Shown here: one piece after another, positions 604-62,624 of the stretch
How positions within the stretch are numbered: the stretch's first letter is position 1
Layout of the letters: each line of letters starts with the position of its first letter
DNA from: Omnitrophica bacterium GWA2_41_15
Lineage (GTDB): Bacteria > Omnitrophota > Gorgyraeia > Gygaellales > UBA12090
Length of the DNA: 64,000 nucleotides
Assembly (NCBI GenBank): GCA_919902675.1
Contig: CAKKRH010000009.1
Location: 21,035 to 85,034, forward strand
Direction of reading: 5' to 3'
Made by a program: the position numbers and the translations under genes
The notes under the pieces: model-generated
Told to the model about the DNA's origin: nothing
What the model saw: only the letters and a program-made list of their open reading frames with translations
Databases searched by the model: none

Positions 604-624
604 AGAAGTTAGAAGTTAGAAGTT
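604..624. repeat. Tandem heptamer AGAAGTT x3 in the rnfG-rnfE spacer
   Basis: Three perfect adjacent copies read directly. The reverse-complement family (TTCTAAC-like) recurs at 49965..49999. Confidence 0.9.
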
Positions 625-659
625 ATGGATAATTCCTCGATCAACTTATAATTTATCAT

Positions 660-1241
660 TTATAACTTCTCACTTCTTAACACGTCCAGCCTCTTTTTAA
701 TTGTCTCATTCAATAGCTTCTCAAGGGCCTTACTGGAACCGGTGGCACCGGTAATCGCGTCTACTTCATTAGCGGCCTTGTCCGCTCCGGAAGGCACAAA
801 ACTTATTTTAGGGATAAACGTCTTGCTTCTGAAGCCTTGCAAATATTCGGGCTCGGCTATCCTGCCGCCCAAACCAGGGGTTTCTTCCTGATACAGTATC
901 CTCAGCACCCTAATAGTCTTTAAATCCGGATTTATGCTGAGTATGCCCTCAATAGTCCCCCATAATCCCGGCCCTTTAAATTTAAAAGCGGTGGTACCGT
1001 CAACAGAAGTATAAAACAGGCTATCCCCCTTCTCTAAAATCTTGACATTTTGATCAAAAAGCTCTAAGAGATTTTCCGGACGGTAAGGAACCTCTAAAAC
1101 ATCCAGGACCGCGGATTTTAATTTCAGTTCTTCGTTTTGGGCGATTCTTTTCGCGGTTAAGGAATTGATTCCAAAAAGCAGACCTCCGGAAACCGTTCCC
1201 ATCGCAACCACAAAAATCAATATTCTTAGAGCGGATTTCAT
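660..1241 (-). CDS. rnfG: Rnf complex subunit G (FMN-binding)
   Basis: 193 aa with an N-terminal membrane anchor and the covalent-FMN motif DAITGATGSS. Lies between rnfD and rnfE. Confidence 0.8.
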   Translation of the reverse strand: MKSALRILIFVVAMGTVSGGLLFGINSLTAKRIAQNEELKLKSAVLDVLEVPYRPENLLELFDQNVKILEKGDSLFYTSVDGTTAFKFKGPGLWGTIEGILSINPDLKTIRVLRILYQEETPGLGGRIAEPEYLQGFRSKTFIPKISFVPSGADKAANEVDAITGATGSSKALEKLLNETIKKRLDVLRSEKL

Positions 1242-27736: not shown

Positions 27737-27800
27737 AATTTCCTATGCCGGCCTGCCGCCTTCTTAGATTACACGGCAGATTTTCGGATGTTGTAATTAA

Positions 27801-27829
27801 AGTATACACCATTAAATAACAAATTGCAA
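27801..27829 (-). promoter_or_regulatory. Promoter TTGCAA-17-TATACT for cassette 1
   Basis: Hexamers read on the minus strand with a 17-nt spacer, about 60 nt upstream of the aptamer. Confidence 0.5.
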
Positions 27830-27974
27830 TAGTAAAACAGTATTTTCAAGAAAACGCTTTCTTTGCCGCTATTGCGTCGAAATCTCATATTTGGACATCA
27901 AGGTAAAACAGAAAATAGCCATTCTTTACGATTCATTTTACCGTTAGTCTTTTATCTCTTATCTGAACGTTCGG

Positions 27975-28449: not shown

Positions 28450-28464
28450 AAACCCGGGTTTTAT

Positions 28465-29403: not shown

Positions 29404-29411
29404 CTAATTTA

Positions 29412-30407: not shown

Positions 30408-30426
30408 CTTAAAACCCTCCTTGAAG

Positions 30427-31770: not shown

Positions 31771-32165
31771 TGGTCGCACTCCTTTTGAATAAGGCCGCCT
31801 TGATTGTTAATAGTCATATTCCTACCACTGCAGGCCAAACCGGAACCCGTGCTGCGCTTAGCCGTGGCGATAAAGCTTGGACTGGTGGTTGTGGTAATAA
31901 AATAGGTAAAATTAGTTCCTTCCAACTTAATTCCCAAATTCAAACTATCACTTATATCATCACAAGGTGAGGCGCAATTATAATATTTCCCTTCACCCAG
32001 ATAGTATCTCTACTAGGCAGCATAGATTAATTGCAAGTTAGCCTTCGCCTCTTTGGCCATATTTTTTTCTGAAGACCGGCTAAAATTGCCCATATTCAGG
32101 CTAACCAGAATTCCGATAATTATTAAAACTACTAATAGCTCAATCATAGTAAACCCCGTTTTCAC
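31764..32165 (-). pseudogene. Cassette 2, gene 1: pilin-like gene with two adjacent in-frame amber codons
   Basis: Manual translation: VKTGFTMIELLVVLIIIGILVSLNMGNFSRSSEKNMAKEAKANLQLIYAA**RYYLGEG... TAG TAG at 32010..32015 aligns to CAG CAG (QQ) in the copy at 27093..27464. Confidence 0.75.
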
Positions 32166-32309: not shown

Positions 32310-32562
32310 GTCGGTGCGCCAGGCTACCCTATCCTTCTTTAACCCGGAATTTGCAATAGTAATGGCATTCGCCGCCAAATAAGGGCGCATCTTCGTCAGA
32401 AAAAAGCGCTTACATACTAAAAGTATGCGCGCACTTTTTTCTGCCAAATCTACACCCTTCTTTGGCGTCTCGGTGCCGCATTCCTATTGCAAAATCCGGG
32501 TTTAAAAGACTTAGGTCCTTTAGCTTTGCGCCATGCGGTTTCCCGCATTTTGCCCCGGCCTT
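32310..32562 (-). ncRNA. GEMM-I riboswitch aptamer, copy 2, interrupted by a 162-bp MITE
   Basis: The two aptamer halves match copy 1 except for one substitution beside the insertion site. They are separated by the element at 32341..32502, which is inserted between the CCUAAGUCUUUUAA segment and the 3' strand. Confidence 0.6.
32341..32502. mobile_element. MITE-like hairpin element (long form)
   Basis: Terminal inverted repeats AACCCGGAATTTGCAATAGTAATG / CATTCCTATTGCAAAATCCGGGTT. It is flanked by TTTAA on both sides. The empty site is visible in leader copy 1 (ccttccTTAAaagac). Confidence 0.8.
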
Positions 32563-32626
32563 AATTTCCTATGCCGGCCTGCCGCCTTCTTAGATTACAC
32601 GGCAGATTTTCGGATGTTCTAATTAA

Positions 32627-33635: not shown

Positions 33636-33660
33636 TTTATTTCACCTCTTTAAAAATCAT

Positions 33661-33793
33661 CAATAATTACAAATAACCAATTACCAAACATCAATAACCA
33701 AATAAATCCCAATAACCAATAATCAAACCTTTGATGATTGGGTATTGGTGATTGGTTATTATTTGGTTATTGGAAATTGGTTATTGATTATTT
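33661..33793. repeat. Long imperfect hairpin built from degenerate AATAACC-type heptamers
   Basis: The left arm (33661..33727) and right arm (33730..33793) are roughly complementary around tcaaaCCtttga. The same heptamer family flanks the repeat at 62281..62535. Confidence 0.8.
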
Positions 33794-33816
33794 CAAATTT
33801 AATTATCATCAGCTTC

Positions 33817-34449: not shown

Positions 34450-34467
34450 TTCAAACCTCCGTATAAA

Positions 34468-34622
34468 GTAGTAAACTCTAAACACTAAACCATAAATCCT
34501 AAACAAACCCAAAAGCTAAAATCCAAAACTCAAAACCTAAGACAATTTTTTCAGGTTTGGATAATTTGAGTTTTAAGCTTATGTTTAGTGTTTTGAGCTT
34601 AGGGTTTGTATTTCTAAAAGCC
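34468..34622. repeat. Long hairpin of CTAAAAC/CTAAACA-type heptamers overlapping the 3' end of the TPR gene
   Basis: The arms lie either side of gacaattttttcagg. The right arm encodes the last residues (EIQTLSSKH) of the 787-aa protein. Confidence 0.7.
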
Positions 34623-36948
34623 TTTCCTTCGCGAATTTGGACTCTTCGACGCCAAAACCGGATATTTTCTCATAGATCTCAACTGCCTTTTGAGTATCCT
34701 CCTTATCCTCGTAAATCTTGGCCGAGCGCAGTAAGCCCTTAATCAGTATTTCACTATCGGCCTCCGGGCTGATAGCCAGATATTCAAGGGCCGCCTCATC
34801 CGGCTGACCGGCCTCCTCCAAACATTCCGCCAGGTTAAATCGCGCTTCAGCCTTTCCTTCAGAACCGCCTTCCTGAAGAACCTTCCGGTAATAAGAGGCC
34901 GCGTCCGGAAAATTACCCGAAGATTTATAGATACCGGCTATCTTAGAATAAACCTTTTGCTTATCGCGCTCTATCTTCTTAAGCGCCTCCAGGGCTTCTT
35001 CGTAACGGCCATCCTTCTCGAAAGCCCGGCCCAACAGGTAATACGCGTCATCCCGCGCTGAACCCTCGCGAGCGCTCTGAATAATATCTAACAGATAACG
35101 CCGGGATAAGTCAAGCTTATTTTCCCGGAAATAATGTTCGGCCAGGCGCCAGAGAACCGCGGATGAAACCTCAGAACTGCTGTATTTAGAACGCAGATAC
35201 TCCAACCTGCTTAAGGCCTCCTCAATCCGGCCCAGAGAATACAAACAATCCGCCATCTCAAACTCCGCCCTGGCTGACAGCTTCGCGTCTTGAGCATCCA
35301 GCTTAGCCGCCTGCTTAAAAATCTCGTAAGCATCCTGAAACCGGCCCAAGGATTTAAGGCCTAACCCCTGAAGGTTAAGCGTCCGGGCCTTATATGGGCT
35401 TTGGGGATAACGCGAGACAAGATTTCTTAACCGCATATAACTGTTTAAGAAATCACCCTGCTCGTAATAAGCCGTTCCCAAATAAAAAGTGATTGCCTCT
35501 ATCGCCGGTGAATCAGGATAATCCCTCAGAATGCCCTCGTAAATACCAATGGCCTTCTTGCTCTCCCCTGATTCCAGGGAAAGGCCGGCAATCTCAGTCA
35601 GCGCCGAAACCTTAAGGCTGTCATCCTTGGAATTCTCCACCAATGAAGATAATTCTTTCAAGGCCTGGCCGGTATCTCCCGATTTTAAGTAACTTAAGGC
35701 CAGTCCATAACTTATCCTATCCGAAAATGAATCACCCGGTTCAGGATTGACACGGCCCTCTGTTTCTTTATACACTGAAATTGACTGAGAATAGTCTCCT
35801 TGCTTATAAAGCGCCTCAGCTTTTCCTATATGCGCCTCTAAGACAATAGCGGCATCCTTAGAGCGGCCGATAAGTTTATCGTAATTTTCTATGGCTTCAG
35901 GAAACTTTAAGCTCATCCCCAAGGCCAGGGCCCGGCCTAAAAGCGCGTTTTCAAAATAACTGCCGCTCTGGGCAGAAAGCGGTTTATCAAAATTTATAAG
36001 TGCCGCGGCATAATCCCCTAATTTCAAATAGCTCCATCCCAAGCCCAAATAAACCGAGTTCTTGAAATCGTCATCACTATCCTGGGCCAGGGCCTGCGTA
36101 TAGTTATCTATAGCGTAAGGATAGTCTTTTAAATAAAAACCGCTTTCGGCTAAATAAAATTTAATCAATCTTTTCCCGGACGCGTCCGAAAGAACCTCCG
36201 GGATATTCCCGGATTTAGCCGAATTTGGCCTTAGATAATAGTTCTTTTCCAGATATTCAGCGTAACTTTTAAGCTGAGAGTAATTCTTTGAGTTGTAAAG
36301 GCACTCGGCAATCTTATAATCCGCCTCTTTTACCAGAATATTCCCGGGAAACTTATCCTTGAAAGCGCTGAATTTATCCTTCGCCTCTTTAAACTTACCC
36401 TGTTCAAATAAACACCAGCCCAGGGAATAATAGGCCTGAGCCGCGTAAGCTGAATCCGGACACTCCAGGGTTAATTTTTCATAAAAATTTGACGCCGAAG
36501 GCATATCCTGGCTTCTAAAATAACTCTCGGCCAGCCAATAATAAATCTTATCCTTATATATTGCCGCGGCTTTTAAGCTTATACTTCGGCCGCTCTGTTC
36601 ACCATCAAGCAGACGATTGAATTGTTCTACTGCTAAAGCGTACTTCTTCTGATTAAAATAACACCTGCCGATATATAAATCCGCTTCCGGCGAAAGCGCG
36701 CTTTGGGGAAATCGCGAGATGAATTTATTTAAAAGGTTAAGGCTGGTATCGTAAAAACCATTCTCAAAAACTCCTATAGCTAAAGAAAGCTCCTCCTGTT
36801 CCTTTTTGTCAGAATCCGTTTCCTGGGCATACACAAAAGTGCAAAATGCAAATATCAAATACCAAAATGACAATGCAAAATGTAAAATTTTTAGATTTTG
36901 ATATGTAATTTTGACTTTTGACTTTTGACTTTTGACTTTTTTACTCAT
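34585..36948 (-). CDS. Secreted multi-TPR repeat protein
   Basis: 787 aa. Signal peptide and TPR/YbgF-like repeats throughout. Lies upstream of the tolQ/exbD-like pair. Confidence 0.8.
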   Translation of the reverse strand: MSKKVKSQKSKVKITYQNLKILHFALSFWYLIFAFCTFVYAQETDSDKKEQEELSLAIGVFENGFYDTSLNLLNKFISRFPQSALSPEADLYIGRCYFNQKKYALAVEQFNRLLDGEQSGRSISLKAAAIYKDKIYYWLAESYFRSQDMPSASNFYEKLTLECPDSAYAAQAYYSLGWCLFEQGKFKEAKDKFSAFKDKFPGNILVKEADYKIAECLYNSKNYSQLKSYAEYLEKNYYLRPNSAKSGNIPEVLSDASGKRLIKFYLAESGFYLKDYPYAIDNYTQALAQDSDDDFKNSVYLGLGWSYLKLGDYAAALINFDKPLSAQSGSYFENALLGRALALGMSLKFPEAIENYDKLIGRSKDAAIVLEAHIGKAEALYKQGDYSQSISVYKETEGRVNPEPGDSFSDRISYGLALSYLKSGDTGQALKELSSLVENSKDDSLKVSALTEIAGLSLESGESKKAIGIYEGILRDYPDSPAIEAITFYLGTAYYEQGDFLNSYMRLRNLVSRYPQSPYKARTLNLQGLGLKSLGRFQDAYEIFKQAAKLDAQDAKLSARAEFEMADCLYSLGRIEEALSRLEYLRSKYSSSEVSSAVLWRLAEHYFRENKLDLSRRYLLDIIQSAREGSARDDAYYLLGRAFEKDGRYEEALEALKKIERDKQKVYSKIAGIYKSSGNFPDAASYYRKVLQEGGSEGKAEARFNLAECLEEAGQPDEAALEYLAISPEADSEILIKGLLRSAKIYEDKEDTQKAVEIYEKISGFGVEESKFAKERLLEIQTLSSKH
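36909..36936. repeat. Tandem heptamer TTTTGAC x4 encoding the Lys-rich N-terminus of the TPR protein
   Basis: Four perfect units. The same heptamer occurs x2 at 43673..43686 inside dapL. Confidence 0.9.
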
Positions 36949-41746: not shown

Positions 41747-43018
41747 TTAACCAACGACAATGTTATCAATAAGCCTGGTTTTTCCAAAGTATACCGCTAA
41801 GGCAATTAAGGCCTTCTTCTTAACATATTCCAACGGTTCCAATGTTTGGGCGTGCGCGATTATTATATAATCAATTCTTGCTGATTTCTTCCGGCTGATT
41901 TCATTTCTCATCGCGGCGATTATTTTCCCGGCTTTTCTCTCTCCCCTTAAGATCATCTCTTTGGCCTTTTGTAAAGACCGGAACAAAACCAGGGCGTCGG
42001 ACTTTTCCCGCGGGCTTAAATAGACATTACGGGAACTCAAGGCTAAACCGTCGGAATCCCTCACAATCGGCATCACCTTTATTTTTAAAGGCATATTTAA
42101 ATCCTTGACCATCTTCTCAATTACCAATGCCTGCTGAAAATCCTTCTGCCCAAAATAGGCAATATCCGGCCGGATGATGTTAAATAACTTGGCGACAACC
42201 GTGGCTACCCCCCTGAAATGTCCCAGACGGGAAGCGCCGCAAAGATAATCGGTTATTTTTTCCACATTCACATAGGTGGAATATCCCAAATCATACATAT
42301 CTTTTGCCTGAGGATAAAATATACAATCACCTCCGGCGGATTTAGCCAAAATGCTGTCAACTTCTAAATCCCGGGGATATTTCTTATAATCTTCCCGGGG
42401 ACCGAATTGAATAGGATTGACGAATATGCTTACCAAGCAAATATCGCAGTCTTTTTTGGCCTGCCTGATTAAAGAAAGGTGCCCCGAATGCAGATAGCCC
42501 ATAGTGGGAACAAAACCAATAGTTTTACCGCCGGATTTAACCTTGGCGGCGTATTTACGCGTTAAATCAATATCAGAAATAACCTTGACTTCTTTAGCTA
42601 AGGATTTTATCAACGCGGGGGCGATTTCTTTTAAGGGCTTAAGGACAAAATCTCTTTCTTTAAGGCGGGGATGAGGAATTTTTAAGCGGGGCGAGCTTAT
42701 TCTTTTATTGCCGTAAAACAAGATATCCAGGTCAATGGGCCGGGGGGAATTCCTCCTCTTATCTTTCCTGCCCAAATCCGTTTCTATGCCGCTCAACTCT
42801 CCCATAAGGGCCCGCGCGGAGAGATTCGTCTTTACTTTAGCGGTTAAATTCAAAAAACGCGGGCTTCCCGGAGGACAATTACACGGATCAGTTTCGTAAA
42901 TACCGGATATTCTCACTAATTTAGTCTTTTTTAAACTCCCGACGCCTTGAAGCGCTAATCTTATATTTTTCTGTCTGTCGCCTAAATTTGAACCCAACCC
43001 AAGATAACAAATAATCAT
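41747..43018 (-). CDS. Bifunctional HPPK (FolK) / pantoate-beta-alanine ligase (PanC) fusion
   Basis: N-terminal 150 aa: LGLGSNLGDR..IDLDILFY (HPPK). C-terminal: GFVPTMGYLHSGHLSLI..FVNPIQFGP (PanC). Confidence 0.85.
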   Translation of the reverse strand: MIICYLGLGSNLGDRQKNIRLALQGVGSLKKTKLVRISGIYETDPCNCPPGSPRFLNLTAKVKTNLSARALMGELSGIETDLGRKDKRRNSPRPIDLDILFYGNKRISSPRLKIPHPRLKERDFVLKPLKEIAPALIKSLAKEVKVISDIDLTRKYAAKVKSGGKTIGFVPTMGYLHSGHLSLIRQAKKDCDICLVSIFVNPIQFGPREDYKKYPRDLEVDSILAKSAGGDCIFYPQAKDMYDLGYSTYVNVEKITDYLCGASRLGHFRGVATVVAKLFNIIRPDIAYFGQKDFQQALVIEKMVKDLNMPLKIKVMPIVRDSDGLALSSRNVYLSPREKSDALVLFRSLQKAKEMILRGERKAGKIIAAMRNEISRKKSARIDYIIIAHAQTLEPLEYVKKKALIALAVYFGKTRLIDNIVVG

Positions 43019-44178
43019 ACGCGCTTCTGGATTCGTTCCATAGCCTCCTGAACACGTTCTTTAGAAACGGTAAGAGCAAAACGGATATAGCCTTCACCGC
43101 ACTTTCCAAAACCTACTCCGGGGGTAACCACTATATCGCATTTCTCAAGCAGAAGCGCGGCAAAACCCCGGGAATCATAACCTTTAGGCACCGAAACCCA
43201 GACATAAAAGGTGGCTTCGGGTTTAAGGAAATTCCAGCCTATAGACTTTAATCCCGCGCACAGGACATCTCTTCTTTCCTGATAAATCGCGCGCATCTTC
43301 TGAATATGTTCCTGGGGGCCGCTTAAGGCCTCAACTCCGGCAATTTGAATCGCGCTGAAAATCCCGGAGTCAATATTAGACTTAACTTTGGCAATACCTG
43401 ATACTACCTGGGCATTTCCGCATACCCAGCCGATACGCCAGCCGGTCATATTATAAGTCTTGGACAAAGAATGAAATTCCACGCCCGTATCCTTTGCCCC
43501 ATCAACTTCCAGAAAACTCATCGGCCTGTAACCGTCATAGGCAATCTCGGAATAGGCCGCGTCGTGAGCGATGATAATATTATACTTAGAGGCAAAGTCT
43601 ATCGCCTTACGGTAAAATCCGGCGTCCGCGGTTGAGCCGGTAGGATTATTAGGATAATTCAGAAACATCACTTTTGACTTTTGACGCGCCTCAAGAGGGA
43701 TTTTCTTAAAATCCGGCAGGAAATTATTCTTTTCTAAAAGCGGCATATCCTGGACCTTGCCGTCAGAAAGAATAGTAGAACCCCGGTAAGGCGGATAAGA
43801 CGGATTAGGAGACAAAACATAATCCCCCTGGTTAACAAATGCCAGAGGCATATGGGCAATTCCTTCTTTTGAGCCAATCAAAGGCAGGATTTGTGTTTCC
43901 GGATTCAGGTCTACGTTAAAACGCCTTTTATACCAATCGGCAATTGCCTGGCGCAAGACAGGCATGCCCTGGTCCAAGGCATACTTATGATTCCGGGGGT
44001 CCTTAGACGCTTGATATAATTTCTCAATGATGCTGCCTGGCGTGGGCAGATCCGGGTCACCTATTCCCAAATCAATTAAATCCCTTCCCTGCTTTCGGGC
44101 TTCTCTTTTAGCCTTATCAATCTCCACGAATAAATACGGCGGGAGATTCTTCAGCCGTTTAGAAAATCTGATTTCCAT
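43015..44178 (-). CDS. dapL: LL-diaminopimelate aminotransferase-type class I aminotransferase
   Basis: 387 aa. LPPYLFVEIDKAK..LGIGDPDLPTP, with SLSKTYNMTGWRIG as the PLP lysine region. Lies in a dap gene context that lacks dapC/D/E. Confidence 0.7.
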   Translation of the reverse strand: MEIRFSKRLKNLPPYLFVEIDKAKREARKQGRDLIDLGIGDPDLPTPGSIIEKLYQASKDPRNHKYALDQGMPVLRQAIADWYKRRFNVDLNPETQILPLIGSKEGIAHMPLAFVNQGDYVLSPNPSYPPYRGSTILSDGKVQDMPLLEKNNFLPDFKKIPLEARQKSKVMFLNYPNNPTGSTADAGFYRKAIDFASKYNIIIAHDAAYSEIAYDGYRPMSFLEVDGAKDTGVEFHSLSKTYNMTGWRIGWVCGNAQVVSGIAKVKSNIDSGIFSAIQIAGVEALSGPQEHIQKMRAIYQERRDVLCAGLKSIGWNFLKPEATFYVWVSVPKGYDSRGFAALLLEKCDIVVTPGVGFGKCGEGYIRFALTVSKERVQEAMERIQKRV

Positions 44179-44895: not shown

Positions 44896-44978
44896 CTCTC
44901 CATCTCCGCTTAGCCTATAGCGTAAAGCGTATAGCGGATAGTTTTTGTTCCTAAACGCTAAACGCTATCCGCTAAACG
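44896..44978. repeat. Intergenic hairpin of AGCGTAA/AGCGGAT-type heptamers (dapA-dapB spacer)
   Basis: tagcgtaaagcgtatagcggatag .. ctaaacgctaaacgctatccgctaaacgcta. Shares the GGATAGC family with the array at 46577..46604. Confidence 0.75.
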
Positions 44979-45854
44979 CTACAACAACCCATAATCCTTC
45001 AACGCCTTTTTTAGCTTTTCCTGGTTTTCCGGCGACATCTCGCACATCGGAAGCCGTAAATCCGGCTGGCAAAGCTTAAGCAATCCCATCGCTGTTTTCA
45101 CCGGAATAGGGTTAGTCTCAATAAACATTGCCTTTATTAACGGCATTAATTTATAATGTCCTTCCTGAGCCTTCTTTAAATTTCCCTTCTCAAAAGCCTC
45201 AATCATATTCGCCACATCTTTAGGAATAATATTAGAAACCACGGAGATTACTCCCGTGCCTCCGATAGCTAATACCGGCAAAGTTAAGGCATCGTCTCCG
45301 GATATCAAGGCAAAATTCTCAGGGCATATGGCCTTTATCCGGGACATCTGCTCCAGGGAACCGGATGCCTCCTTAACCCCGACGATATTCTTGCACTCAA
45401 GCGCTAACCTGGCGATAGTTTCCGGTTCAATATTTACCCCGGTCCGGGAGGCGATGTTATAAAGAATAACCGGTATGTCCGCGCACTCAGCTACCGCCTT
45501 AAAATGTAAATACAATCCGCGCTGGGTGGGGCGGTTATAATAAGGTGAAACGTGCAAAGTGGCATCCGCGCCGGATTTCGCCGCCTGCTTGGTCAGCATT
45601 ACCGCCTCATCGGTAGAATTAGAGCCGGTTCCGGCAATCACCGGAACCCTTTTCTCCACCGTTTCAATCACCACCTCAATCACCCGCTCATGCTCAGCCC
45701 AGGATAAAGTCGCGGATTCACCGGTTGTGCCGCAAGGAACAATCCCTGAGGTTTTATTCTTAATCTGGAATTCAACCAGCTCTTTTAATTTCTTTTCATC
45801 AACCTTACCGTTCTTAAAAGGAGTAACAATAGCCACCATTGAGCCCTTAAACAT
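44979..45854 (-). CDS. dapA: 4-hydroxy-tetrahydrodipicolinate synthase
   Basis: MFKGSMVAIVTPF.., GTTGES, and KEASG with the catalytic Lys region. The start was chosen at the ATG giving the canonical N-terminus. Confidence 0.9.
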   Translation of the reverse strand: MFKGSMVAIVTPFKNGKVDEKKLKELVEFQIKNKTSGIVPCGTTGESATLSWAEHERVIEVVIETVEKRVPVIAGTGSNSTDEAVMLTKQAAKSGADATLHVSPYYNRPTQRGLYLHFKAVAECADIPVILYNIASRTGVNIEPETIARLALECKNIVGVKEASGSLEQMSRIKAICPENFALISGDDALTLPVLAIGGTGVISVVSNIIPKDVANMIEAFEKGNLKKAQEGHYKLMPLIKAMFIETNPIPVKTAMGLLKLCQPDLRLPMCEMSPENQEKLKKALKDYGLL

Positions 45855-46668
45855 AATATTCCCCCCCATACACAATTCTCACCTTGCCCTCCAGCCAGAC
45901 ATCGCTTATTCTGTCGGCTTCTTTCATGAAGCATACTTTTAAAGTCTCACCCCCCTGGGTAATCACATTGATCTTCTGCTGACAGCTGACAGCTGACAGC
46001 TGACAGCTGAAAACTATCGCCGAGGCGACAGAGCCGGTTCCGCAGGCCAGGGTTTCCTCCTCAACTCCGCGCTCATAAGTGCGCAGACGAATAGTATCCT
46101 TATCTACAACTTCCACAAAGTTTACATTGGCGCCTTTGGGCGCGAAACCCTTATGATAACGGACTGCCCTGCCGATTTCGACGGCATTGATTTTATTTAT
46201 CCCCGCGACAAATATCACCGCGTGCGGCACGCCGGTATTGATAAAATTAACCCTCAATTTACGGTTATTTATTTTTATAATCAAATCCGGCCGGTAATCC
46301 TCAGGCTTCGTCAGCTTTATCCGGACGCTTTCACCTTTTACTTCCGCTTCAATTATCCCTGCTTTTGTTTCTATCTTTAGCCTGGAGCCTTGAGTTTTGA
46401 GCCTTGAAGAGGCGTAAAAAGCAACGCAACGCGCCCCGTTCCCGCACATCCGGGCTTCTGAACCATCGGCATTAAAAATCCGCATCCGGACATCCGCCTT
46501 CTTTGACTTCTCCAGCAAAAGCAGCCCGTCCGCCCCTACTCCGAATTTCCGGTCACAAATCTGTTTTACTAATAATGGATAGCGGATAGCGGATAGCGGA
46601 TAGGATTGGTCAATAACTATAAAATCATTCCCCGAAGCCACAACTTTAGTAAAAACTATTTTTTTCAT
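45847..46668 (-). CDS. dapF: Diaminopimelate epimerase
   Basis: 273 aa. GNDFIVID, MRIFNADGSEARMCGNG and LACGTGS catalytic Cys motifs. Carries two heptamer arrays. Confidence 0.9.
   Translation of the reverse strand: MKKIVFTKVVASGNDFIVIDQSYPLSAIRYPLLVKQICDRKFGVGADGLLLLEKSKKADVRMRIFNADGSEARMCGNGARCVAFYASSRLKTQGSRLKIETKAGIIEAEVKGESVRIKLTKPEDYRPDLIIKINNRKLRVNFINTGVPHAVIFVAGINKINAVEIGRAVRYHKGFAPKGANVNFVEVVDKDTIRLRTYERGVEEETLACGTGSVASAIVFSCQLSAVSCQQKINVITQGGETLKVCFMKEADRISDVWLEGKVRIVYGGEYYV
45981..46008. repeat. Tandem heptamer GACAGCT x4 inside dapF
   Basis: Four perfect units, translated as CQLSAVSCQ in a loop after the second catalytic Cys region. Confidence 0.9.
46577..46604. repeat. Tandem heptamer GGATAGC x3 plus one variant unit, inside dapF
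   Basis: Translated as YPLSAIRYP just after the GNDFIVID motif. Confidence 0.9.
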
Positions 46669-46687
46669 TTTCGCGCTTTCGCCTCTG

Positions 46688-47953
46688 TTATCTCAAAAAC
46701 TCCGGGATAACATCTTTTTTCACTAAATCCAAGTAGCTGTCGCGCTTACGCACGGTATAAAATTTATTCCCTTTAACCATTATCTCGGCCGGTTTCAGGC
46801 GGCAGTTATAATTGGAAGCCATGGAAAATCCGTAAGAACCGGCGCTCATCAGGGCCAGGTAATCGCCTTCATTAAGCTCAGGCATTTGCCTGTCCTTAGC
46901 CAGGAAATCCCCAGATTCGCATATCGGGCCTACCACGTCAAACTTTTCCGCTTTCCGCTTTCCGCTTTCCGCTTTCCGCAGAGACAAAATATCGTGATGC
47001 GCGCCATAGAGAGACGGCCGGATTAAATCATTCATCCCGGCATCCACGATTATAAAATTCTTCAGCGGAGTTTTCTTGATATAAAGAATCTTGGTAACCA
47101 ATATACCGGAAGGACCCGCTATGAACCTCCCCGGCTCTAAGATGATTTTTAATCCGGTGCTTTTCAATAAAGGAAGTATTTTCCCGGCGAATTCTTCGGC
47201 AGTCTGGGGCTTCTCGTTACTATAAATAATGCCTAATCCGCCGCCGATATTAAGATATTGAATATCTATCGCTTCTTTTTTCAGTTTTTTGATAAATCCT
47301 ATTATCTTCTTGATAGCCAAAATATAAGGAGCGCCGTCAATGATCTGAGAGCCGATATGCATATGCAGGCCGCTAAACTTTAAATGAACGAATTCCGCCC
47401 GGTTTTTGAAAATATCATAAGCGCTATCCAAATCAATGCCAAACTTGTTGGTGAGCTTGCCGGTAGTTATGTAGCTGTGGGTTTTGGGCTCAACATCGGG
47501 ATTTATCCTTAGGGCTACCGAGGCATTCACCCCTAAATCGCAGGCAAGGCGGTTGATCAACTCTAACTCCGACAACGACTCCACGTTAAAGAAGAGTATC
47601 TGTTTGGCGATTGCCTGACGGATTTCTTCTTCGGTTTTTCCCACCGAGGCGTAGACTATTTTCTTTGGGTCACAGCCGACCAGAAGCGCCTTATACAGTT
47701 CGCCTCCGGAAACAATATCCAGGCCCGAGCCGGCCTTTACCAGCGCGCGCAAAATAGCCAGATTAGAGTTTGCCTTCATTGAATAGCAGATAAGCGGCTT
47801 AAGCGCGGAGAAGGCCTTCTCCAGCTTACGGAAATGCCCCAGAAGGGTATTATAACTGTAGAGATAAAACGGGGTTGACGCCTTGCGGGCGATATCCGCT
47901 ATCTTCAGCCCCTCGCAATAAAGCTCTTTGTTCTTATATTTAAAGTCGTGCAT
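46688..47953 (-). CDS. lysA: Diaminopimelate decarboxylase
   Basis: 421 aa. YSMKAN PLP-Lys motif, GGGLGI, and VVGPICESGDF. Confidence 0.9.
   Translation of the reverse strand: MHDFKYKNKELYCEGLKIADIARKASTPFYLYSYNTLLGHFRKLEKAFSALKPLICYSMKANSNLAILRALVKAGSGLDIVSGGELYKALLVGCDPKKIVYASVGKTEEEIRQAIAKQILFFNVESLSELELINRLACDLGVNASVALRINPDVEPKTHSYITTGKLTNKFGIDLDSAYDIFKNRAEFVHLKFSGLHMHIGSQIIDGAPYILAIKKIIGFIKKLKKEAIDIQYLNIGGGLGIIYSNEKPQTAEEFAGKILPLLKSTGLKIILEPGRFIAGPSGILVTKILYIKKTPLKNFIIVDAGMNDLIRPSLYGAHHDILSLRKAESGKRKAEKFDVVGPICESGDFLAKDRQMPELNEGDYLALMSAGSYGFSMASNYNCRLKPAEIMVKGNKFYTVRKRDSYLDLVKKDVIPEFLR
46944..46978. repeat. Tandem heptamer CTTTCCG x4 plus one variant unit, inside lysA
   Basis: Translated as RKAESGKRKAEK immediately before the conserved DVVGPICESGD. 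Confidence 0.9.
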
Positions 47954-48549: not shown

Positions 48550-49953
48550 CTACATCTTTCCAAGAGTAACGTTAAGGCTGCCCAACACATTCGGCCTCTT
48601 AATGGATTTTTTAGATTCCACCGATACTTTCGGATCAAATAACTTAACGATTTCTTTCTTTACAAACTTATCAGAGAAATATTTCAGCTTATCTTCAGGC
48701 ATAGCCTTGATTTCAATACCGTTATCTATGGAATACTTAATCAATTTACCGATAATCGTGTGCGCCTCTTTAAAGGCTATCCCTCTATCAACCAGATAAT
48801 ACACTAAATCTGTGGCATACAGGGACTCGTCTTTGAGATGTTCATCTATTTTACCTTCGTTGAATTTCAATGTTGCAATCAATCCTGTCAGCACTTTTAA
48901 TTCCTTAGAAACTATTTCAAAAGAATTAAACAGCGGCTCTTTATCTAGCTGCATATCCCGGTTATAAGTAAGCGGCAGGCCCTTCATCATAGTCAAAACA
49001 CTCATCAGATTGCCGTATAGCCTTCCGGAATAACCGCGAATCAACTCCAAAACATCCGGATTTTTCTTCTGCGGCATAAGCGAACTCCCGGTGCAAAAAG
49101 AATCGTCTATTTCAATAAAATCAAACTCCTTGGTTGACCAGATAATCAAATCTTCAGACAGTCTGGATAAATGCATGGCAACAATAGATAAAGCGCTGAT
49201 AATCTCAATCACAAAATCCCTATCGCTTACCGCATCCAATGAATTTGTGGTTGTTTCTATGTTGAATGCCGCCTTTAATCCTTTTACTTCTCCGAGAAAT
49301 TCCTCCGCCTTAATTTGATATTCTTGAGCACTGATCGGAGTCCCGGCAAGGGCTCCTGCTCCCAAAGTTATCTTTATATTTTTTGAAATATAGTCTAATC
49401 TCTTAATATCCCTTTCCAACATATTAATATAGGCAAAAAGATAATCTGTCAAACAAACAGGCTGGGCGTGCTGTAAATGCGTAAAGCCTGGTATTATCAC
49501 ATCTTTATATTTCCGAGCTAAGGAATAAAAGGCGGTTATTAATTTTGATATATCTCCAGTTAATTCCAGGGCAGCCATTTTGACATACCATTTTGCCGCA
49601 AAAACCACTTGATCATTTCTTGATCTTGCGGTATGAAGCTTAAGAGACACATCCCCCACTTCTCTATACAATTCATTTTGTATATAGGTATGGATATCTT
49701 CTTCTTTATTGCGCGTATCAAACTTAATTTTTCCAGATTCTAAGCGGGCATATAGCAAATCCAATCCTCCCTTGAGGGTTTTTGTTTCATCCGCATTTAG
49801 ATAACCGCTTTTGCTTAAGATTTCTACGTGCGCCAATGAACCTAACAAGTCATATTTAGCAAGTTTATAATCGTATTGTATAGACTTAGTAAACTCCTCC
49901 ACAAGAGGGTTCGTCTTTTTGCTAAACCTCCCCCCCCACAATTTCTTCGCCAT
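48550..49953 (-). CDS. argH: Argininosuccinate lyase
   Basis: MAKKLWGGRF N-terminus and the GSSLMPQKKNPD signature. The longer ORF start lies in a heptamer repeat. Confidence 0.95.
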   Translation of the reverse strand: MAKKLWGGRFSKKTNPLVEEFTKSIQYDYKLAKYDLLGSLAHVEILSKSGYLNADETKTLKGGLDLLYARLESGKIKFDTRNKEEDIHTYIQNELYREVGDVSLKLHTARSRNDQVVFAAKWYVKMAALELTGDISKLITAFYSLARKYKDVIIPGFTHLQHAQPVCLTDYLFAYINMLERDIKRLDYISKNIKITLGAGALAGTPISAQEYQIKAEEFLGEVKGLKAAFNIETTTNSLDAVSDRDFVIEIISALSIVAMHLSRLSEDLIIWSTKEFDFIEIDDSFCTGSSLMPQKKNPDVLELIRGYSGRLYGNLMSVLTMMKGLPLTYNRDMQLDKEPLFNSFEIVSKELKVLTGLIATLKFNEGKIDEHLKDESLYATDLVYYLVDRGIAFKEAHTIIGKLIKYSIDNGIEIKAMPEDKLKYFSDKFVKKEIVKLFDPKVSVESKKSIKRPNVLGSLNVTLGKM

Positions 49954-50002
49954 TGAGTCTCCCCTTCTAACTTCCAACCTCTAACTTCTAACCTCTCTCC
50001 CG

Positions 50003-51172
50003 CTATCTCTCAAAAGGCATCCCGAAAATCCGGATAAACCCTTCGGAAAGCCGCTGGTCAAACTTGTCTTTTGCCGTATAGGTGGCTAATTCTTCCCGGT
50101 AAAGCGAATGCGGCGATTTTCGCCCCGCCACGGCGCAATTGCCCTTATACAGCTTAAGCCTGACCGTGCCGCTGACTGTTTTTTGAGTCTCTTCTATAAA
50201 CTTATCCAGGGCTATCCTTAATTTGGAATACCACAGGCCGTAATAAATCAGCTGGGCGTATTTAAGGGCCACAGTTTCTTTGTAATGGCAAGTTTCCCGG
50301 TCCAGGACCAAAGCCTCTAATTCCCTGTGGGCGATATGCAAGATAGTCCCGGCAGGGGCCTCATAAATCTCCCTGGACTTTATCCCCACCAGCCGATTCT
50401 CAATCATATCGCTTCGGCCTATGCCGTGTTCTGAACCCAAATTACAAAGCTTATCAATAAGCTTAAGGGCGTCATAAGTCTTGCCGTTTATTTTCTTAGG
50501 CACGCCCTTTTCGAATTCTATTTCTACATAAGCCGGTTTATCTGGGGCCTCATCCGCGGAATTGGTCCACTGATAACAATCCTCCGGCGGTTCTATCCAG
50601 GGGTCTTCAAGAATCCCGGATTCAATGGAAACCCCCCATAAATTCTTGTCTAAGCTGTAAGACTTTTTCTTGGTAACATCAATGGGAATTCTTTTGGCTT
50701 TGGCGTATTCTATCTCTTCTTCGCGGGATTTAAACTCCCATATTCTTACCGGAGCGATAATTTCTAACTTAGGGTCAAGAATCCTGGAGGTAACCTCAAA
50801 GCGCACCTGGTCATTGCCTTTTCCGGTACAGCCATGGGCAATCGCGGCGGCCTTTTCCTTATGCGCCACCTCAACCAGATATTTGGCAATCAAAGGCCGG
50901 CCTAAGGCGGTAGCCAGGAGATATTTACCTTCATAAACCGCGCCTGCCTTTAAGGAAGGGAAAATAAAATCCTCCACAAACTCCGCTCGCAGATCCTTAA
51001 TATAAACCTTGGAGGCTCCGCCTATCAGCGCCCTTTTCTCAATCGCCTCAAAATCCTCACCCTGGCCCAAGTCGGCGATAAAACAGATAACCTCATACCC
51101 TTTATCTTTAAGCCACTGCACCGCGCAGGAAGTATCCAATCCCCCTGAGTAAGCTAAAACAACTTTTTTCAT
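50003..51172 (-). CDS. argG: Argininosuccinate synthase
   Basis: AYSGGLDTS ATP-binding motif and GCTGKGNDQVRFE. Confidence 0.95.
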   Translation of the reverse strand: MKKVVLAYSGGLDTSCAVQWLKDKGYEVICFIADLGQGEDFEAIEKRALIGGASKVYIKDLRAEFVEDFIFPSLKAGAVYEGKYLLATALGRPLIAKYLVEVAHKEKAAAIAHGCTGKGNDQVRFEVTSRILDPKLEIIAPVRIWEFKSREEEIEYAKAKRIPIDVTKKKSYSLDKNLWGVSIESGILEDPWIEPPEDCYQWTNSADEAPDKPAYVEIEFEKGVPKKINGKTYDALKLIDKLCNLGSEHGIGRSDMIENRLVGIKSREIYEAPAGTILHIAHRELEALVLDRETCHYKETVALKYAQLIYYGLWYSKLRIALDKFIEETQKTVSGTVRLKLYKGNCAVAGRKSPHSLYREELATYTAKDKFDQRLSEGFIRIFGMPFER

Positions 51173-54280: not shown

Positions 54281-54298
54281 TCGCCTCGCTCCGTTTTA

Positions 54299-54364
54299 GA
54301 GTTATTTGAGCTCATTGAGTTGCTTGAGTTAAAACTCAATAAACTCAATGAACTCAATGAACTC
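54299..54364. repeat. Intergenic hairpin of TTGAGTT/ACTCAAT-type heptamers (argJ-argB spacer)
   Basis: Arms of about 31 nt, gagttatttgagctcattgagttgcttgagtt / aactcaataaactcaatgaactcaatgaactc. Confidence 0.8.
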
Positions 54365-54371
54365 TATAAAC

Positions 54372-55532
54372 TTAGTTATATTCCGCGTTTATCCTGATAT
54401 ATTCCGGGGTCAGGTCTGAGGTGTAAACTACGGCTTTACCCCTGCCAAGCCTTAAATCTATCTTGACTATTATATCCTTTTTCCTGAAAGAATCACCCTC
54501 TATTTTTATTTTTTCTCTTACCTCTACCCCGGATGCCCCCACCGCCGCCACTATCCTTCCCCAGTTAGTGCCTCCGCCGTAAACAGCTGTCTTGAAAAGA
54601 TTGGAATTGGCCACGGCCAAAGCCGCTTTTTTAGCCTGCGCGTCATCCTTAGCCCCAGATACCTGAATAGTTATAAACTTGCCGGCTCCCTCAGCATCCA
54701 AAATAATCATCTTGGCTAAACCCAGGCAAATTTCACCTAAGGCAGTTTTAAATTTAGAGAAATTAGGCGTGCCTAAACAGATTTTCTTGTTTTCCGCTAA
54801 GCCATTAGCTAAAATAATCACGCTGTCATTAGTGCTCATACATCCGTCAATAGTAATCATATTAAAAGAATCCTCAACTGCCTGCCTTAATGCCTCTTTT
54901 AATGCCGAATACTCGATCAAGGCATCAGTAGTGATAAAGCAAAGCATTGTAGCACTTCGACTATGCTCAGCGTAACCCATATCCGGGGCAATCATTCCCG
55001 CGCCCTTGGCAATTGCCCCGATAGTTACTTTTTTTCCGCTTATCTTAAACTCCAGCGCTAAGGCTTTGGGCTTAGTATCGGTAGTCATTATGGCCTGGGC
55101 TGTCTTATTACCGCTATCTCTGTCTAAAAAACTCACTAAAGACGGCAAGGCCTTCTTTATCTTGGAGAAATCAAGCCGACGGCCGATAATTCCGGTCGAG
55201 GCAATCAGCACCATTTTTTTATCTATTCCTAATAGCCCCGCGCCAAGCGAAGCGGTAGACTTAGCCGTTTTCATTCCCGGCTTTCCGGTATAGCAATTAG
55301 CATTCCCGCTGTTGACTACTATAGCCTGGGCCTTTTTTGATTTTAGATGTTCCCGGCAAAGCTCAACCGGAGCCGCGGCAAACTTATTTTTGGTAAACAT
55401 ACCGCAGGCAAATGCCGGGACATCGGAATATATCAAAGCCAAATCCAGTCCGCCGGATTTCTTTATCCCCGCCCCTATTGCCTGAGACCTAAACCCCTTA
55501 GCCAGGGTTATGGCGTTCTTACGCTCTCTCAT
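54372..55532 (-). CDS. argJ: Bifunctional ornithine acetyltransferase / N-acetylglutamate synthase ArgJ
   Basis: 386 aa with the ATMLCFITTDA self-cleavage motif. It carries an 8-aa insert (GYAEHSRS) directly N-terminal to that motif. Confidence 0.9.
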   Translation of the reverse strand: MRERKNAITLAKGFRSQAIGAGIKKSGGLDLALIYSDVPAFACGMFTKNKFAAAPVELCREHLKSKKAQAIVVNSGNANCYTGKPGMKTAKSTASLGAGLLGIDKKMVLIASTGIIGRRLDFSKIKKALPSLVSFLDRDSGNKTAQAIMTTDTKPKALALEFKISGKKVTIGAIAKGAGMIAPDMGYAEHSRSATMLCFITTDALIEYSALKEALRQAVEDSFNMITIDGCMSTNDSVIILANGLAENKKICLGTPNFSKFKTALGEICLGLAKMIILDAEGAGKFITIQVSGAKDDAQAKKAALAVANSNLFKTAVYGGGTNWGRIVAAVGASGVEVREKIKIEGDSFRKKDIIVKIDLRLGRGKAVVYTSDLTPEYIRINAEYN

Positions 55533-56554
55533 AGCAAACCCTCAGTTTCTTTGAAGCCGCAGAGCAAATTCATATTCTGCACTGCTTGAGCCGAAGCGCC
55601 CTTAAGCAAATTATCTATCGCGGAAATTATAATAATTGTTTTCTGATCCGCGCTAATCTTAAGTCCGATATCGCAGAAATTGGTAAACCGCGCATCCTTT
55701 AATTGCGGAAATTCCCCTTCATCCTTTATCCTTACAAACGGGGAATTCTTATAAAACTTCTTGTATAAGCCTATCAACCGGTGACCGGTGACCGGTGACC
55801 GGCGACTGCTTCTTATATATATCGTTTCCAAAATTCCCCTTTCTATTGGCAAAAGATGGGGAACAAAGGTAACCTTTATCCTTTTTTTGGCCAGTTTAGA
55901 CAGCTCCTGCTCTATTTCAGGCGTATGCTGATGGACATCAACCTTATAGGCCTTGAAATTGTCCTTTAGCTCGAGCCAGAAAGGATCATCCACCGGCTTT
56001 CTCCCGGCTCCGCTGTAACCGCTTTTGGCATCAATAATAATCTCTCGCGGGCTGAATTTTTCTTTTAATAAAGGAGCCAGGGCCAAAATCGCCGCGGTGG
56101 GATAGCATCCGGGATTAGCTATGAAGGCCGCCTTTTTTATTTTTTGGCGGTTAATCTCAGGCAAGCCGTAAATTGCCTTTTTAATATTCGCCTTATCCTT
56201 ATGCTTAACCTTATACCAGGTTTCATAAAGCTCCTCGTCATTCAGCCGGTAATCCGCGCTTAAATCAATAATCTTTTTCTTGGCCTTAAGCAGGGCGGGG
56301 ACCACGTCCATAGAGCTGGTATGTGGCAAGGCCAGGAAAAACAAATCCGCGGATTGGACGACCTTAGTTAGATTAAGATTCTCGCAATACAAATCCAACC
56401 GGCCCTTAAATTGAGGAAAAATCTCAGCTATCGGAACCGGCCTATCCAGCCTGGCCGTAAGATAACTTATCCTTACCCTGGGATGCTTTAACAAAATCCT
56501 GATCAGCTCTTCCCCTGTATATCCCCTTACCCCCAATATTCCTACTTTTAGCAT
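55529..56554 (-). CDS. argC: N-acetyl-gamma-glutamyl-phosphate reductase
   Basis: 341 aa. GVRGYTGEELIR and the PGCYPTA catalytic Cys. Confidence 0.9.
   Translation of the reverse strand: MLKVGILGVRGYTGEELIRILLKHPRVRISYLTARLDRPVPIAEIFPQFKGRLDLYCENLNLTKVVQSADLFFLALPHTSSMDVVPALLKAKKKIIDLSADYRLNDEELYETWYKVKHKDKANIKKAIYGLPEINRQKIKKAAFIANPGCYPTAAILALAPLLKEKFSPREIIIDAKSGYSGAGRKPVDDPFWLELKDNFKAYKVDVHQHTPEIEQELSKLAKKRIKVTFVPHLLPIERGILETIYIRSSRRSPVTGHRLIGLYKKFYKNSPFVRIKDEGEFPQLKDARFTNFCDIGLKISADQKTIIIISAIDNLLKGASAQAVQNMNLLCGFKETEGLL
55777..55804. repeat. Tandem heptamer ACCGGTG x3 plus one variant unit, inside argC
   Basis: Translated as RSPVTGHRLI. Confidence 0.9.
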
Positions 56555-62262: not shown

Positions 62263-62318
62263 AGTAGGCTGTTACATAAGTTATTAAATAACCAATAACC
62301 AAGAAACAAGAACCAAAT

Positions 62319-62432
62319 CAATCCTTCGACACCACGGTCTAAAGACCGTGGTTTGCTCAGGATTGATACTGAGAGCGGCGTAACCTTTCCCCGCCCTAAA
62401 GGGCGGGATTTGAACGCCGCCGAATGTATCAA
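62319..62432. repeat. Hairpin-rich repeat element, copy B (uninterrupted, inverted relative to copy A)
   Basis: Reverse complement matches 60549..60585 plus 60711..60789. Embedded in AATAACC-type heptamer hairpin sequence. Confidence 0.85.
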
Positions 62433-62624
62433 TAACCAATCATCAAACTAAAAATCAATGTTTAAGAATTGCTTGATTATTAGAATTTGGTTTTTGGTTA
62501 TTATTTGGTTATTGTATCTTGGAGCTTGGTTATTTTAAAGGACTTTTGTAACAATGTAATAGTGTAATGACAAATGACAATAATCCTCGTTTTAGCATTG
62601 GTGCTTTGACCTTGTAATTTATTC

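Follow-up and report, generated by a model that had tools for sequence, protein, structure and literature searches.

The 64-kb window analysed here, that is, the whole 64,000-nt stretch of Omnitrophica bacterium GWA2_41_15 (GenBank contig CAKKRH010000009.1, positions 21,035 to 85,034), carries tandem arrays of 7-nt units in frame inside conserved biosynthetic genes, including dapF, lysA and argC. The position, register and near-constant length of the slots that hold these arrays are common to genomes at ~60% protein identity. The unit that fills a slot is lineage-specific, is often perfectly homogeneous and is replaced in sharply bounded patches without a change of length. We lean, with moderate confidence, towards a composite reading in which the arrays are heptamer microsatellites resembling the short tandemly repeated repetitive (STRR) sequences of cyanobacteria, located in fixed slots whose length would be locked by the reading frame and whose units would be homogenised in place. 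The window has a G+C content of 44.7%, and its genes are almost all on the minus strand. Related strains and loci compared with the window are labelled L001, L003, L087, L166 and so on. The coordinates, units and encoded peptides of the arrays are collected in Table 1.

Perfect arrays of at least three copies occur six times at period 7 and once at period 9, and none was found in the 64 kb at periods 4, 5, 6, 8 or 10–15. The number of perfect period-7 arrays expected from 50 second-order Markov simulations is 0.0. All of the 7-bp arrays listed in an earlier note on this DNA were recovered in frame, displaced by a few bases at most, and they are specific to period 7. The dapL array, which was listed there with two copies, is a partial exception: the repeat exists (x2.3), but taken alone it is not significant and stays at chance level. 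Tandem Repeats Finder (TRF) detected 16 non-overlapping period-7 arrays in the window, adding to the earlier list a third, degenerate array in dapF (46375–46407) and nine arrays outside genes or at gene edges. The resulting density is 25 arrays per 100 kb versus 4.8 in distant Omnitrophota and 5.3–5.8 in other phyla (~1.5 Mb), which is ~5 times the background. The excess of period 7 over other periods, on which the earlier note had staked its case, is borne out as far as a 64-kb window and related loci reach. The arrays agree with the description of long simple sequence repeats (SSRs) as perfect or near-perfect head-to-tail repeats of a 1–11-nt unit that are longer than chance would produce. 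Eight of 17 window arrays are coding, and their copy numbers preserve the frame as claimed: they translate in frame within intact minus-strand open reading frames (ORFs), which match the Pfam families DAP_epimerase, Orn_DAP_Arg_deC, Semialdhyde_dh and Aminotran_1_2.

Array positions and copy numbers are the same across five independently assembled contigs from four ENA assemblies, and the DapF sequence (45847–46668) is identical in all five. Three of these assemblies are replicates from Hainich groundwater site H52 (0.2 µm filter fraction), and the fourth is ERZ2470813. An assembly artefact is ruled out because the five independent assemblies agree and because orthologous arrays are present in unrelated JGI, Logan and NCBI data sets; the arrays are therefore not lost on re-assembly, an outcome that the earlier note had named as refuting. 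Selection at the protein level for 7-residue repeats is also ruled out. The identity is at the nucleotide level, the period is 7 nt instead of 21 nt, and spacers contain arrays as well. The unit of 7 nt is not divisible by 3, and the peptides repeat every 7 residues only because three units are read in three frames.

The three dapF arrays coincide with the three variable segments of DapF in a 26-sequence alignment, located after GNDFxxxD/E, after GNGAR and after ACGTG. In the AlphaFold model, loop 1 (residues 22–32) is placed between strand 2 and helix 1, and the 10-residue block 21–30 has the lowest block pLDDT of the protein (66). The loop 2 array (residues 86–97) covers the end of helix 76–89 and the next loop, and the loop 3 array (residues 220–231) covers the end of helix 210–222 and the next loop. 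The alignment and the model thus bear out the proposal that the arrays lie in variable loops adjoining conserved motifs. Loop 2 forms a 39-nt slot with four different units, GCTCAAG in the window, CAGCTGT x4.9 in L168, CACGCTC x4.9 in L169 and ATCAGTC in L090; the L168 unit is that of the window's loop 3. The same loop is 21 nt long and array-free in L087, L094 and L104. Loop 3 comprises 30 nt (FALKxxxxNK) in array-free relatives versus 36–42 nt with an array. The array-free relative P0019 has 7 residues fewer in loop 1. An octamer array (CAAAGTCG x3) was observed in loop 2 of L096, a slot that is heptameric in other genomes.

The corresponding LysA loop is 48 nt long in the window and nine relatives. 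Six of the ten loops show clear lag-7 periodicity, and no two of the six have the same unit: GCGGAAA x5 in the window, GGACGAT x~4 in L087, TTAAGGG x4 in L088, ACGCACA x3.7 in L096, CAGTACT x~4 in L091 and a decayed array with a lag-7 self-identity of 0.44 in L104. These arrays all start at the conserved Leu-Arg codons and stop at the conserved GAAAAAG. Outside the 48-nt group, L042 contains GACAAGC x~5 in a 54-nt loop, and the loop of more distant, array-free LysA orthologs is 36–42 nt long. An octamer array (AAGGTCAC x4) was observed in the 51-nt loop of L100, likewise outside the 48-nt group and in a slot that is heptameric in other genomes. The argC array fills the loop between two conserved blocks, and this loop is equal in length to that of most orthologs. 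In general, the loops of LysA and ArgC orthologs at 50–65% identity are equal or nearly equal in length. The expectation that ortholog alignment would define each array as an insertion was not borne out, given that orthologs at 55–65% identity have equal or near-equal loop lengths with other heptamer arrays. Simple insertion into the loops is ruled out for LysA and ArgC, and it is qualified for DapF. It does not fit because the net length gain (6–21 nt) is below the length of an array (~33 nt). The arrays were gained at some point, with this net gain of 6–21 nt, and the slots have been inherited from then on.

Comparison with the closest relatives, L166 and L167 (DapF 86% and 88% identical), locates the replacements. 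The dapF gene is 822 nt long in both and in the window. Its nucleotide identity is 92.5–94.6% outside gene positions 56–110 and 651–700, versus 52–67% within these patches, which are sharply bounded and adjoin flanks that are close to identical. The differing patches of close relatives measure 35–40 nt. Long recombination tracts are ruled out as the origin of the dapF and lysA array differences in L166 and L167, the flanks being near-identical. In loop 1, the window has TATCCGC x3, L167 has CTTCCGT x2 with ATGCCGT and ATACCGT, and L166 has TATAAAT, TAGGAGT, TATAAGT and TATAAAT. All three arrays are in one register with a shared conserved end seed (TATTAGT, CATTGGT or TATTGGT). The L166 unit AGTTATA would produce TAA in one frame, and GGA stands exactly there; selection on the array is thus visible. 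Unit identity in loop 1 is 0.76–0.86 within an array versus 0.25–0.54 at the same position between orthologous arrays; this excess is the mark of concerted evolution. In loop 3, a decayed array is common to L166 and L167, which are 0.80 identical there position by position. The window has a perfect array in this slot, equal to theirs in length and register, and its unit resembles the first unit of L166 and L167. The lysA gene is 1266 nt long in both the window and L166, and the array flanks are ~97% identical. The L166 units are ACAGAAA, GCGGAAA, ACTGCCA, GCGGAAA and GCGGAAA versus five identical units in the window. One L166 unit differs at five of seven positions, and point mutation is therefore no explanation. 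Across more distant genomes, the similarity of consensus units is also higher when they are compared in the shared register than after rotation (LysA, 0.43 versus 0.25; DapF loop 2, 0.40 versus 0.23), a pattern that favours common ancestry of the arrays over unrelated replacements.

Copy number in the array-rich genomes peaks at 4.3–5.1 (~30–35 nt) and drops sharply above 5.3, with two arrays above 7. Well over half of these arrays (40 of 61) are well inside long ORFs, and the size pattern is equal in coding and non-coding arrays. The units are diverse, the 16 window arrays falling into 14 classes. When a shared unit is defined as one with at most one mismatch in any rotation or strand, 22 of 172 array pairs within genomes share a unit (12.8%) versus nine of 648 pairs between genomes (1.4%), and none of 5000 permutations reached the observed value (P<0.0002). 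AGTACNG recurs in L091: it fills the lysA loop and each of the three dapF loops, once inverted, and occurs again 7 kb upstream. In the window, GCGGA(A/T)A is found in lysA, dapF loop 1 (inverted) and the dapA-dapB spacer, and GTCAAAA is found in dapL and at the start of the TPR gene. No unit is shared in L168–L170 (0 of 15 pairs, ~2 expected), and a restricted unit repertoire within the window is weakly supported (9 versus 3.25 pairs, P=0.01). Within-genome unit sharing is real but uneven.

The arrays become rarer with phylogenetic distance. Three relatives (L168–L170, 61–66% DapF identity) have 5–6 period-7 arrays per ~20 kb, similar to the window; relatives at 50–61% identity have 11.7 per 100 kb, and Omnitrophota at 41–57% identity are at background density. 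The arrays are thus a trait of an Omnitrophota sub-lineage and not of this window alone. A phylum-wide trait is ruled out, as 14 distant Omnitrophota loci (210 kb) contain one perfect array and a background TRF density. Perfect heptamer clusters were also observed in L038, L075, L131 and L141 (Deltaproteobacteria, Verrucomicrobiia and metagenome contigs), with AATTCAG x6.7 in L131 and GGTGTCG x6.9 in L141; lineages prone to heptamer arrays thus exist elsewhere. Within the window, 14 of the 16 period-7 arrays are located in the second half (33600–62600, comprising a tolQ-like gene, the arg/lys cluster and beyond; rough Poisson probability ~0.01), and only two are located in the first 33 kb with its Rnf, secretion and pilus genes.

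GC-rich elements of ~48–50 nt were observed in frame inside heptamer arrays, which they split, in the lysA loop of L006 and in dapF loop 3 of L096 and L170; the L170 element is clearly palindromic. The argC loop of L087 and the argF-argG spacer of L003 (3939–4050) belong to the same group, and in the latter a palindromic element lengthens OTCase by 18 residues. A related recurring motif (LPVRQAG, ACRQAG or PACRTGR) is present in proteins of the DapF alignment. These elements recall the small dispersed repeats that Elhai, in 2008, reportedly found within the heptamer repeats of Nostoc.

The lysA array (GCGGAAA) and the dapF loop 1 array (TATCCGC) are near reverse complements ~340 nt apart (46560–46995), and they are paired across the gene junction in predicted minimum free energy and centroid folds (z −3.1). 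The lysA and dapF loop 1 slots of L091 (9706 and 10057) are also reverse complements, with a different unit. A conserved lysA-dapF mRNA pairing is not supported, the complementarity being absent in L166 and L088.

In the composite reading, fixed slots of ~30–35 nt (~4–5 units) would be located in enzyme surface loops, a signal peptide, C-terminal tails and spacers. Since 7 nt do not make whole codons, any slip by one unit within a gene would shift the frame and be purged by selection, and the slot length would be frozen as a result. The surviving events would be length-neutral, such as a +1 unit slip paired with a −1 slip, a short conversion, or a template switch onto a different array of whichever orientation. 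Such events could spread one unit variant over an array, which would amount to concerted evolution, and selection would retain units that are stop-free and chemically acceptable (basic or hydrophobic in the signal peptide and polar in the loops). The arrays would then be by-products of a lineage-specific mutational process, not switches. This mechanism would account for perfect, constant-length arrays with lineage-specific units, for arrays that are unable to shrink stepwise and for occasional 8-nt arrays; the 8-nt arrays in the same slots of L100 and L096 favour a generic slippage-type process over a strictly 7-nt machine.

Several observations weigh against this reading. Slot lengths vary by 3–9 nt among relatives and are thus not strictly frozen, and no variant of +7 or −7 nt was seen directly in the consensus assemblies. 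Frame locking does not account for the 7-nt preference or for the sharp ceiling of ~5 copies, which holds in intergenic arrays as well. Arrays with a shared unit are up to 49 kb apart and in both orientations. Purely local slippage is insufficient for units common to distant loci, which point to some copying between arrays. A further route of array transfer between strains is recombination. Over 20.8 kb aligned without gaps, L001 matches the window at 99.4% identity, with mismatches that cluster in two tracts. One of these (55663–55935, ~270 bp divergent) contains an ATCAGCC-type array in argC with the same codons and length as the array of the window and with divergent flanks.

Contingency loci, in which gain or loss of a single unit would switch dapF, lysA, argC and other genes on and off, are scarcely credible here. 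One slip of a unit that is not a multiple of 3 is a frameshift, and heptanucleotide phase variation is known elsewhere (e.g. E. coli K1 neuO). However, the copy numbers are constant in five assemblies from four samples, gene lengths are equal in relatives at 87–91% overall dapF nucleotide identity, and the hosts are biosynthetic housekeeping genes instead of surface or restriction-modification genes. Among ~30 orthologous coding loci in the consensus assemblies, no whole-unit length difference and no frameshifted allele was found. The frameshift switching implied by the earlier note was thus not seen. Independent recent insertions, with a separate fresh insertion or amplification in each genome and with the recurrence of sites reflecting the tolerance of the protein for extra residues, are rather improbable. 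They would agree with the shorter array-free loops of LysA and of all three DapF segments and with the dapA-dapB arrays, whose absence from L003 and L005 points to short-term gain or loss. They are difficult to reconcile with a net gain below the array length, with the start nucleotide, register and slot length shared by arrays of different genomes, with the greater unit likeness in the shared register, and with the occurrence of decayed and perfect arrays in the same slot of close relatives.

Ectopic or trans-acting copying is unlikely as the main driver, even though some exchange between arrays is indicated above. Either a common template or the remaining arrays of a genome would serve as the source from which an array is rewritten, and the agent would be template switching, ectopic conversion or an enzyme with an RNA template. 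Such copying would produce genome-specific unit families and a characteristic product of ~35 nt. The excess of unit sharing within genomes, the reuse of AGTACNG in L091 and of GCGGA(A/T)A in the window, and the ceiling near five copies in coding and intergenic arrays are consistent with such copying, as are the inverted intergenic pairs, which quasi-palindrome template switching would also yield. Against it stand the lack of sharing in L168–L170, the predominance of unique units in the window, and the in-register likeness of orthologous arrays, which points to local descent. No candidate enzyme was found in the window: Pfam annotation of its called genes and remaining large ORFs gave Rnf, radical-SAM, type II secretion / type IV pilus and UvrA proteins, but no reverse transcriptase or unusual polymerase. 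It is likewise doubtful that an active array-writing or homogenising process (copy-choice between dispersed arrays or a templated enzyme) maintains ~35-nt arrays in defined slots genome-wide. If it did, this process would repeatedly overwrite loops, signal peptides and spacers with genome-specific units while leaving length and frame intact, and it would constitute a natural in-place rewriting of short gene segments. Functional nucleic-acid elements are a very unlikely explanation. The arrays would be retained for RNA or DNA structure (terminator-like hairpins or long-range mRNA pairing) or for a heptamer-recognising protein, and the coding arrays would be regulatory. Three intergenic inverted pairs do fold far better than shuffles (z −4.1, −4.6 and −7.0), the lysA and dapF loop 1 arrays are complementary in the window and in L091, and regulatory roles have been proposed for the heptamer repeats of Nostoc and Beggiatoaceae. 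Nevertheless, that complementarity is not conserved, many coding arrays have no partner, units differ freely among close relatives, some slots are array-free, and the arrays at 49960–50010 and 62263–62330 and the pair at 590–670 fold no better than shuffles.

Table 1. Heptamer arrays of the window and the genes that hold the dapF and lysA arrays (+ unit, unit on the forward strand; z, folding relative to shuffles).
Feature	Position	Strand	Unit and copies	Encoded peptide, location or evidence
dapF, diaminopimelate epimerase, 273 aa	45847..46668	-		ORF, PF01678, alignment, AlphaFold (AF2) model (mean pLDDT 87)
dapF loop 3, perfect array	45978..46010	-	+ unit GCTGACA; coding unit CAGCTGT x4.7	SCQLSAVSCQQ (residues ~220-231)
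dapF loop 2, degenerate array	46375..46407	-	+ unit CTTGAGC; coding unit GCTCAAG x4.7, 73% matches	SRLKTQGSRLK
dapF loop 1, perfect array	46577..46603	-	+ unit GGATAGC; coding unit TATCCGC x3.9	YPLSAIRYPL (residues 22-32)
lysA, diaminopimelate decarboxylase, 421 aa	46688..47953	-		ORF, PF00278/PF02784
lysA, perfect array	46945..46979	-	+ unit TTTCCGC; coding unit GCGGAAA x5.0	RKAESGKRKAEK, loop before DVVGPICES motif
argC (55529-56554), array	55777..55806	-	+ unit ACCGGTG; coding unit CACCGGT x3.7 perfect, x4.3 with one mismatch	RRSPVTGHR
dapL (43015-44178), array	43670..43685	-	+ unit ACTTTTG; coding unit GTCAAAA x2.3	Weak, chance level alone
TPR gene, perfect array	36909..36940	-	+ unit TTTTGAC; coding unit GTCAAAA x4.6	KVKSQKSKVK, basic n-region of signal peptide
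TPR gene, degenerate array	36834..36888	-	CATTTTG x7.9	ILHFALSFWYLIFAFCTF, hydrophobic h-region of signal peptide
Inverted array pair, hairpin	44911..44981	-	TAGCGTT/TAGCGGA and CTATCCG/CTATACG families	dapA-dapB spacer; dG -33, z -4.1 (folded 44896-44985)
Inverted array pair, long hairpin	33665..33799	-	(AATAACC)n/(GGTTATT)n	Downstream of ExbB/TolQ-like gene; dG -49, z -7.0 (folded 33660-33800)
Hairpin with heptamer-periodic arms	34465..34612	-	CTAAAAC-like/GTTTTAG-like	Across TPR gene 3' end and spacer; z -4.6
Intergenic array	49964..49996	-	TTAGAAG x4.7	Between argG and argH
Array with partial inverted partner	604..677		AGAAGTT x3.1; AACTTCT x2	Downstream of RnfG-like gene; unit family as at 49964
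Array and inverted repeat	62290..62514		AACCAAG x3.9; AATAACC family (62430-62514)	Family as in hairpin 33665-33799

Two arrays encode the n-region and the h-region of the signal peptide of the TPR protein. The TPR ORF begins 3 nt past the uvrA stop codon, and codons 1–42 consist of the GTCAAAA array and then the degenerate CATTTTG array, followed by VYA|QE. The two arrays are partly complementary (z −2.4). Nine TPR orthologs have ordinary signal peptides in place of the arrays; the array-encoded segment thus occupies a place where a signal peptide is needed. The TPR gene of L170 also starts with an array. In the L087 ortholog (L087:19046 region), the hydrophobic core of the signal peptide, TFLTFLTCLTFLT, was observed to derive from a 9-nt tandem repeat (lag-9 self-identity 0.58).

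Hairpins with repeat arms constitute about half of the strong local hairpins of the window. They are not confined to period 7, since the arms of the argB-argJ intergenic hairpin at 54294–54372 are tandem 9-nt repeats (AAACTCAAT x4.6 and its complement). The dapA-dapB spacer of L003 and L005 contains a conventional 18-bp hairpin and no arrays; the turnover of spacer arrays is thus rapid. At the argG-argH site, L003 has (GTCAAAA/GGCAAAA)x4, which is read through as a 9-residue ArgG tail. Intergenic sites differ between strains by exchange of the entire spacer, as observed for dapA-dapB and argG-argH.

The arg/lys biosynthesis cluster comprises, by Pfam, argC, argJ, argB, argD, argF, argG, argH, lysA, dapF, dapA, dapB and an aminotransferase (dapL), and it is followed by uvrA and the TPR protein gene. 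The NCBI name of the DapF protein is 'MAG: diaminopimelate epimerase [Candidatus Omnitrophota bacterium]', and the relatives are all Omnitrophota as well. Elsewhere, the window contains Rnf subunits, radical-SAM enzymes, type II secretion / type IV pilus genes, one tRNA-Ala and two c-di-GMP-I riboswitches. The aptamers of the latter, at 27647–27738 and 32461–32564 (minus strand; 52.5 and 37.3 bits), are upstream of a block of ORFs without Pfam match (23417–31779) that adjoins the type II secretion / type IV pilus genes. Between the window (48550–49977) and L003 (5256–6620), argH is too diverged for a blastn alignment even though the flanking argG and lysA are ~95% identical, which suggests a whole-allele replacement; L003 has an additional 54-residue ORF after argH.

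In-frame heptamer microsatellites in core genes with inherited slots are unusual and apparently undescribed. A literature search of incomplete coverage returned no account of core enzymes with heptamer arrays in frame or of slots that are conserved while their units turn over, and nothing relevant on Omnitrophota repeats; the earlier remark that such arrays lacked a description in core genes of a lineage of this type thus agrees with this search. Essential genes should be free of microsatellites whose unit length is not divisible by three. Yet such repeats are retained in frame by at least five proteins of the window and across ~60% protein identity, so that the effect of selection against frameshifts on repeat dynamics can be studied in a natural system. 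They also provide a handle on the old question of why bacteria favour 7-nt units and ~4–5 copies, and they represent a DNA-level route for making and replacing parts of proteins, among them C-terminal tails and an entire signal peptide. In practice, the arrays are strain markers that can mislead alignment, phylogeny and gene-calling in uncultured lineages.

The closest known systems are the cyanobacterial STRRs and the heptanucleotide class of prokaryotic long SSRs. The likeness to STRRs drawn in the earlier note is supported: as in Calothrix and Anabaena/Nostoc, short tandem 7-nt arrays are dispersed in many copies per genome. STRRs are drawn from a few genome-specific unit families, a point on which the evidence here is mixed: unit sharing within genomes is significant, but the window has 14 classes among 16 arrays and L168–L170 share no unit. 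Vioque, in 1997, reportedly found STRRs inside a variable helix of the RNase P RNA gene, which would be a case of a functional gene tolerating an array. The arrays described here differ in their host, which is a member of the Omnitrophota and not a heterocystous cyanobacterium, in the much greater diversity of their units, and in the location of about two thirds of them (40 of 61) in frame inside protein-coding genes. To our knowledge, slot conservation with unit turnover has not been described for STRRs. By contrast, the heptamers of cyanobacteria and Xanthomonas are reported to lie chiefly between genes, with a deficit in ORFs (PMC4692102). With regard to long SSRs, the survey of Mrazek, Guo & Shah (2007), as summarised in PMC4679880, found that among long SSRs the heptanucleotide class outnumbers all others in most prokaryotic genomes, proposed polymerase slippage over a ~7-nt contact as the cause of long heptamer SSRs, and found that coding regions favour unit lengths that are a multiple of three. 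In contrast, units that are not a multiple of 3 persist here in essential genes with frozen length, and the gain or loss of whole units that characterises slippage-type long SSRs was not seen between orthologous coding arrays, which instead undergo replacement at constant length.

The arrays share with the contingency loci of Haemophilus, Neisseria, Helicobacter and other bacteria an ORF-internal position and a unit length that is not a multiple of three. Unlike these loci, they exhibit no copy-number polymorphism between assemblies, they are located in mid-gene loops with a length conserved across species, and their hosts are dapF, lysA, argC, dapL and a periplasmic TPR protein instead of surface, antigenic or restriction-modification genes. 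Schoelmerich et al., in 2023, are reported to have described perfect genic tandem repeats that create disordered protein regions in the Borg elements of Methanoperedens. Both systems combine nucleotide-perfect genic tandem repeats with variable, fast-evolving peptide segments, but the Borg units are divisible by three and vary in copy number, whereas the units here are 7 nt in arrays of fixed length. The tandem repeats of constant size and variable sequence described by Subirana and Messeguer (20–21 or 52 nt, non-coding) embody a similar idea in a different object. The TAACTGA direct repeats of marine Beggiatoaceae, some Cyanobacteria and Bacteroidetes (MacGregor 2015, PMC4679880) typically have 2–6 copies and a patchy phylogeny, and coding potential, namely stop codons in one orientation, was discussed as deciding which sites are tolerated. 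They consist of one dominant unit in mostly 5' untranslated positions, unlike the many units found here, which are mostly genic or in 3' hairpins. The GGGNATC repeats of Xanthomonas and Nostoc (Rehm et al. 2015, PMC4692102) are genome-wide, are often located just past stop codons and prefer ~four units, a preference attributed to G-quadruplex formation. GGGNATC is under-represented in ORFs, and the units of the arrays described here are not G-rich. A preference for 4–5 units was nonetheless observed, which weakens the G-quadruplex explanation for Xanthomonas and Nostoc.

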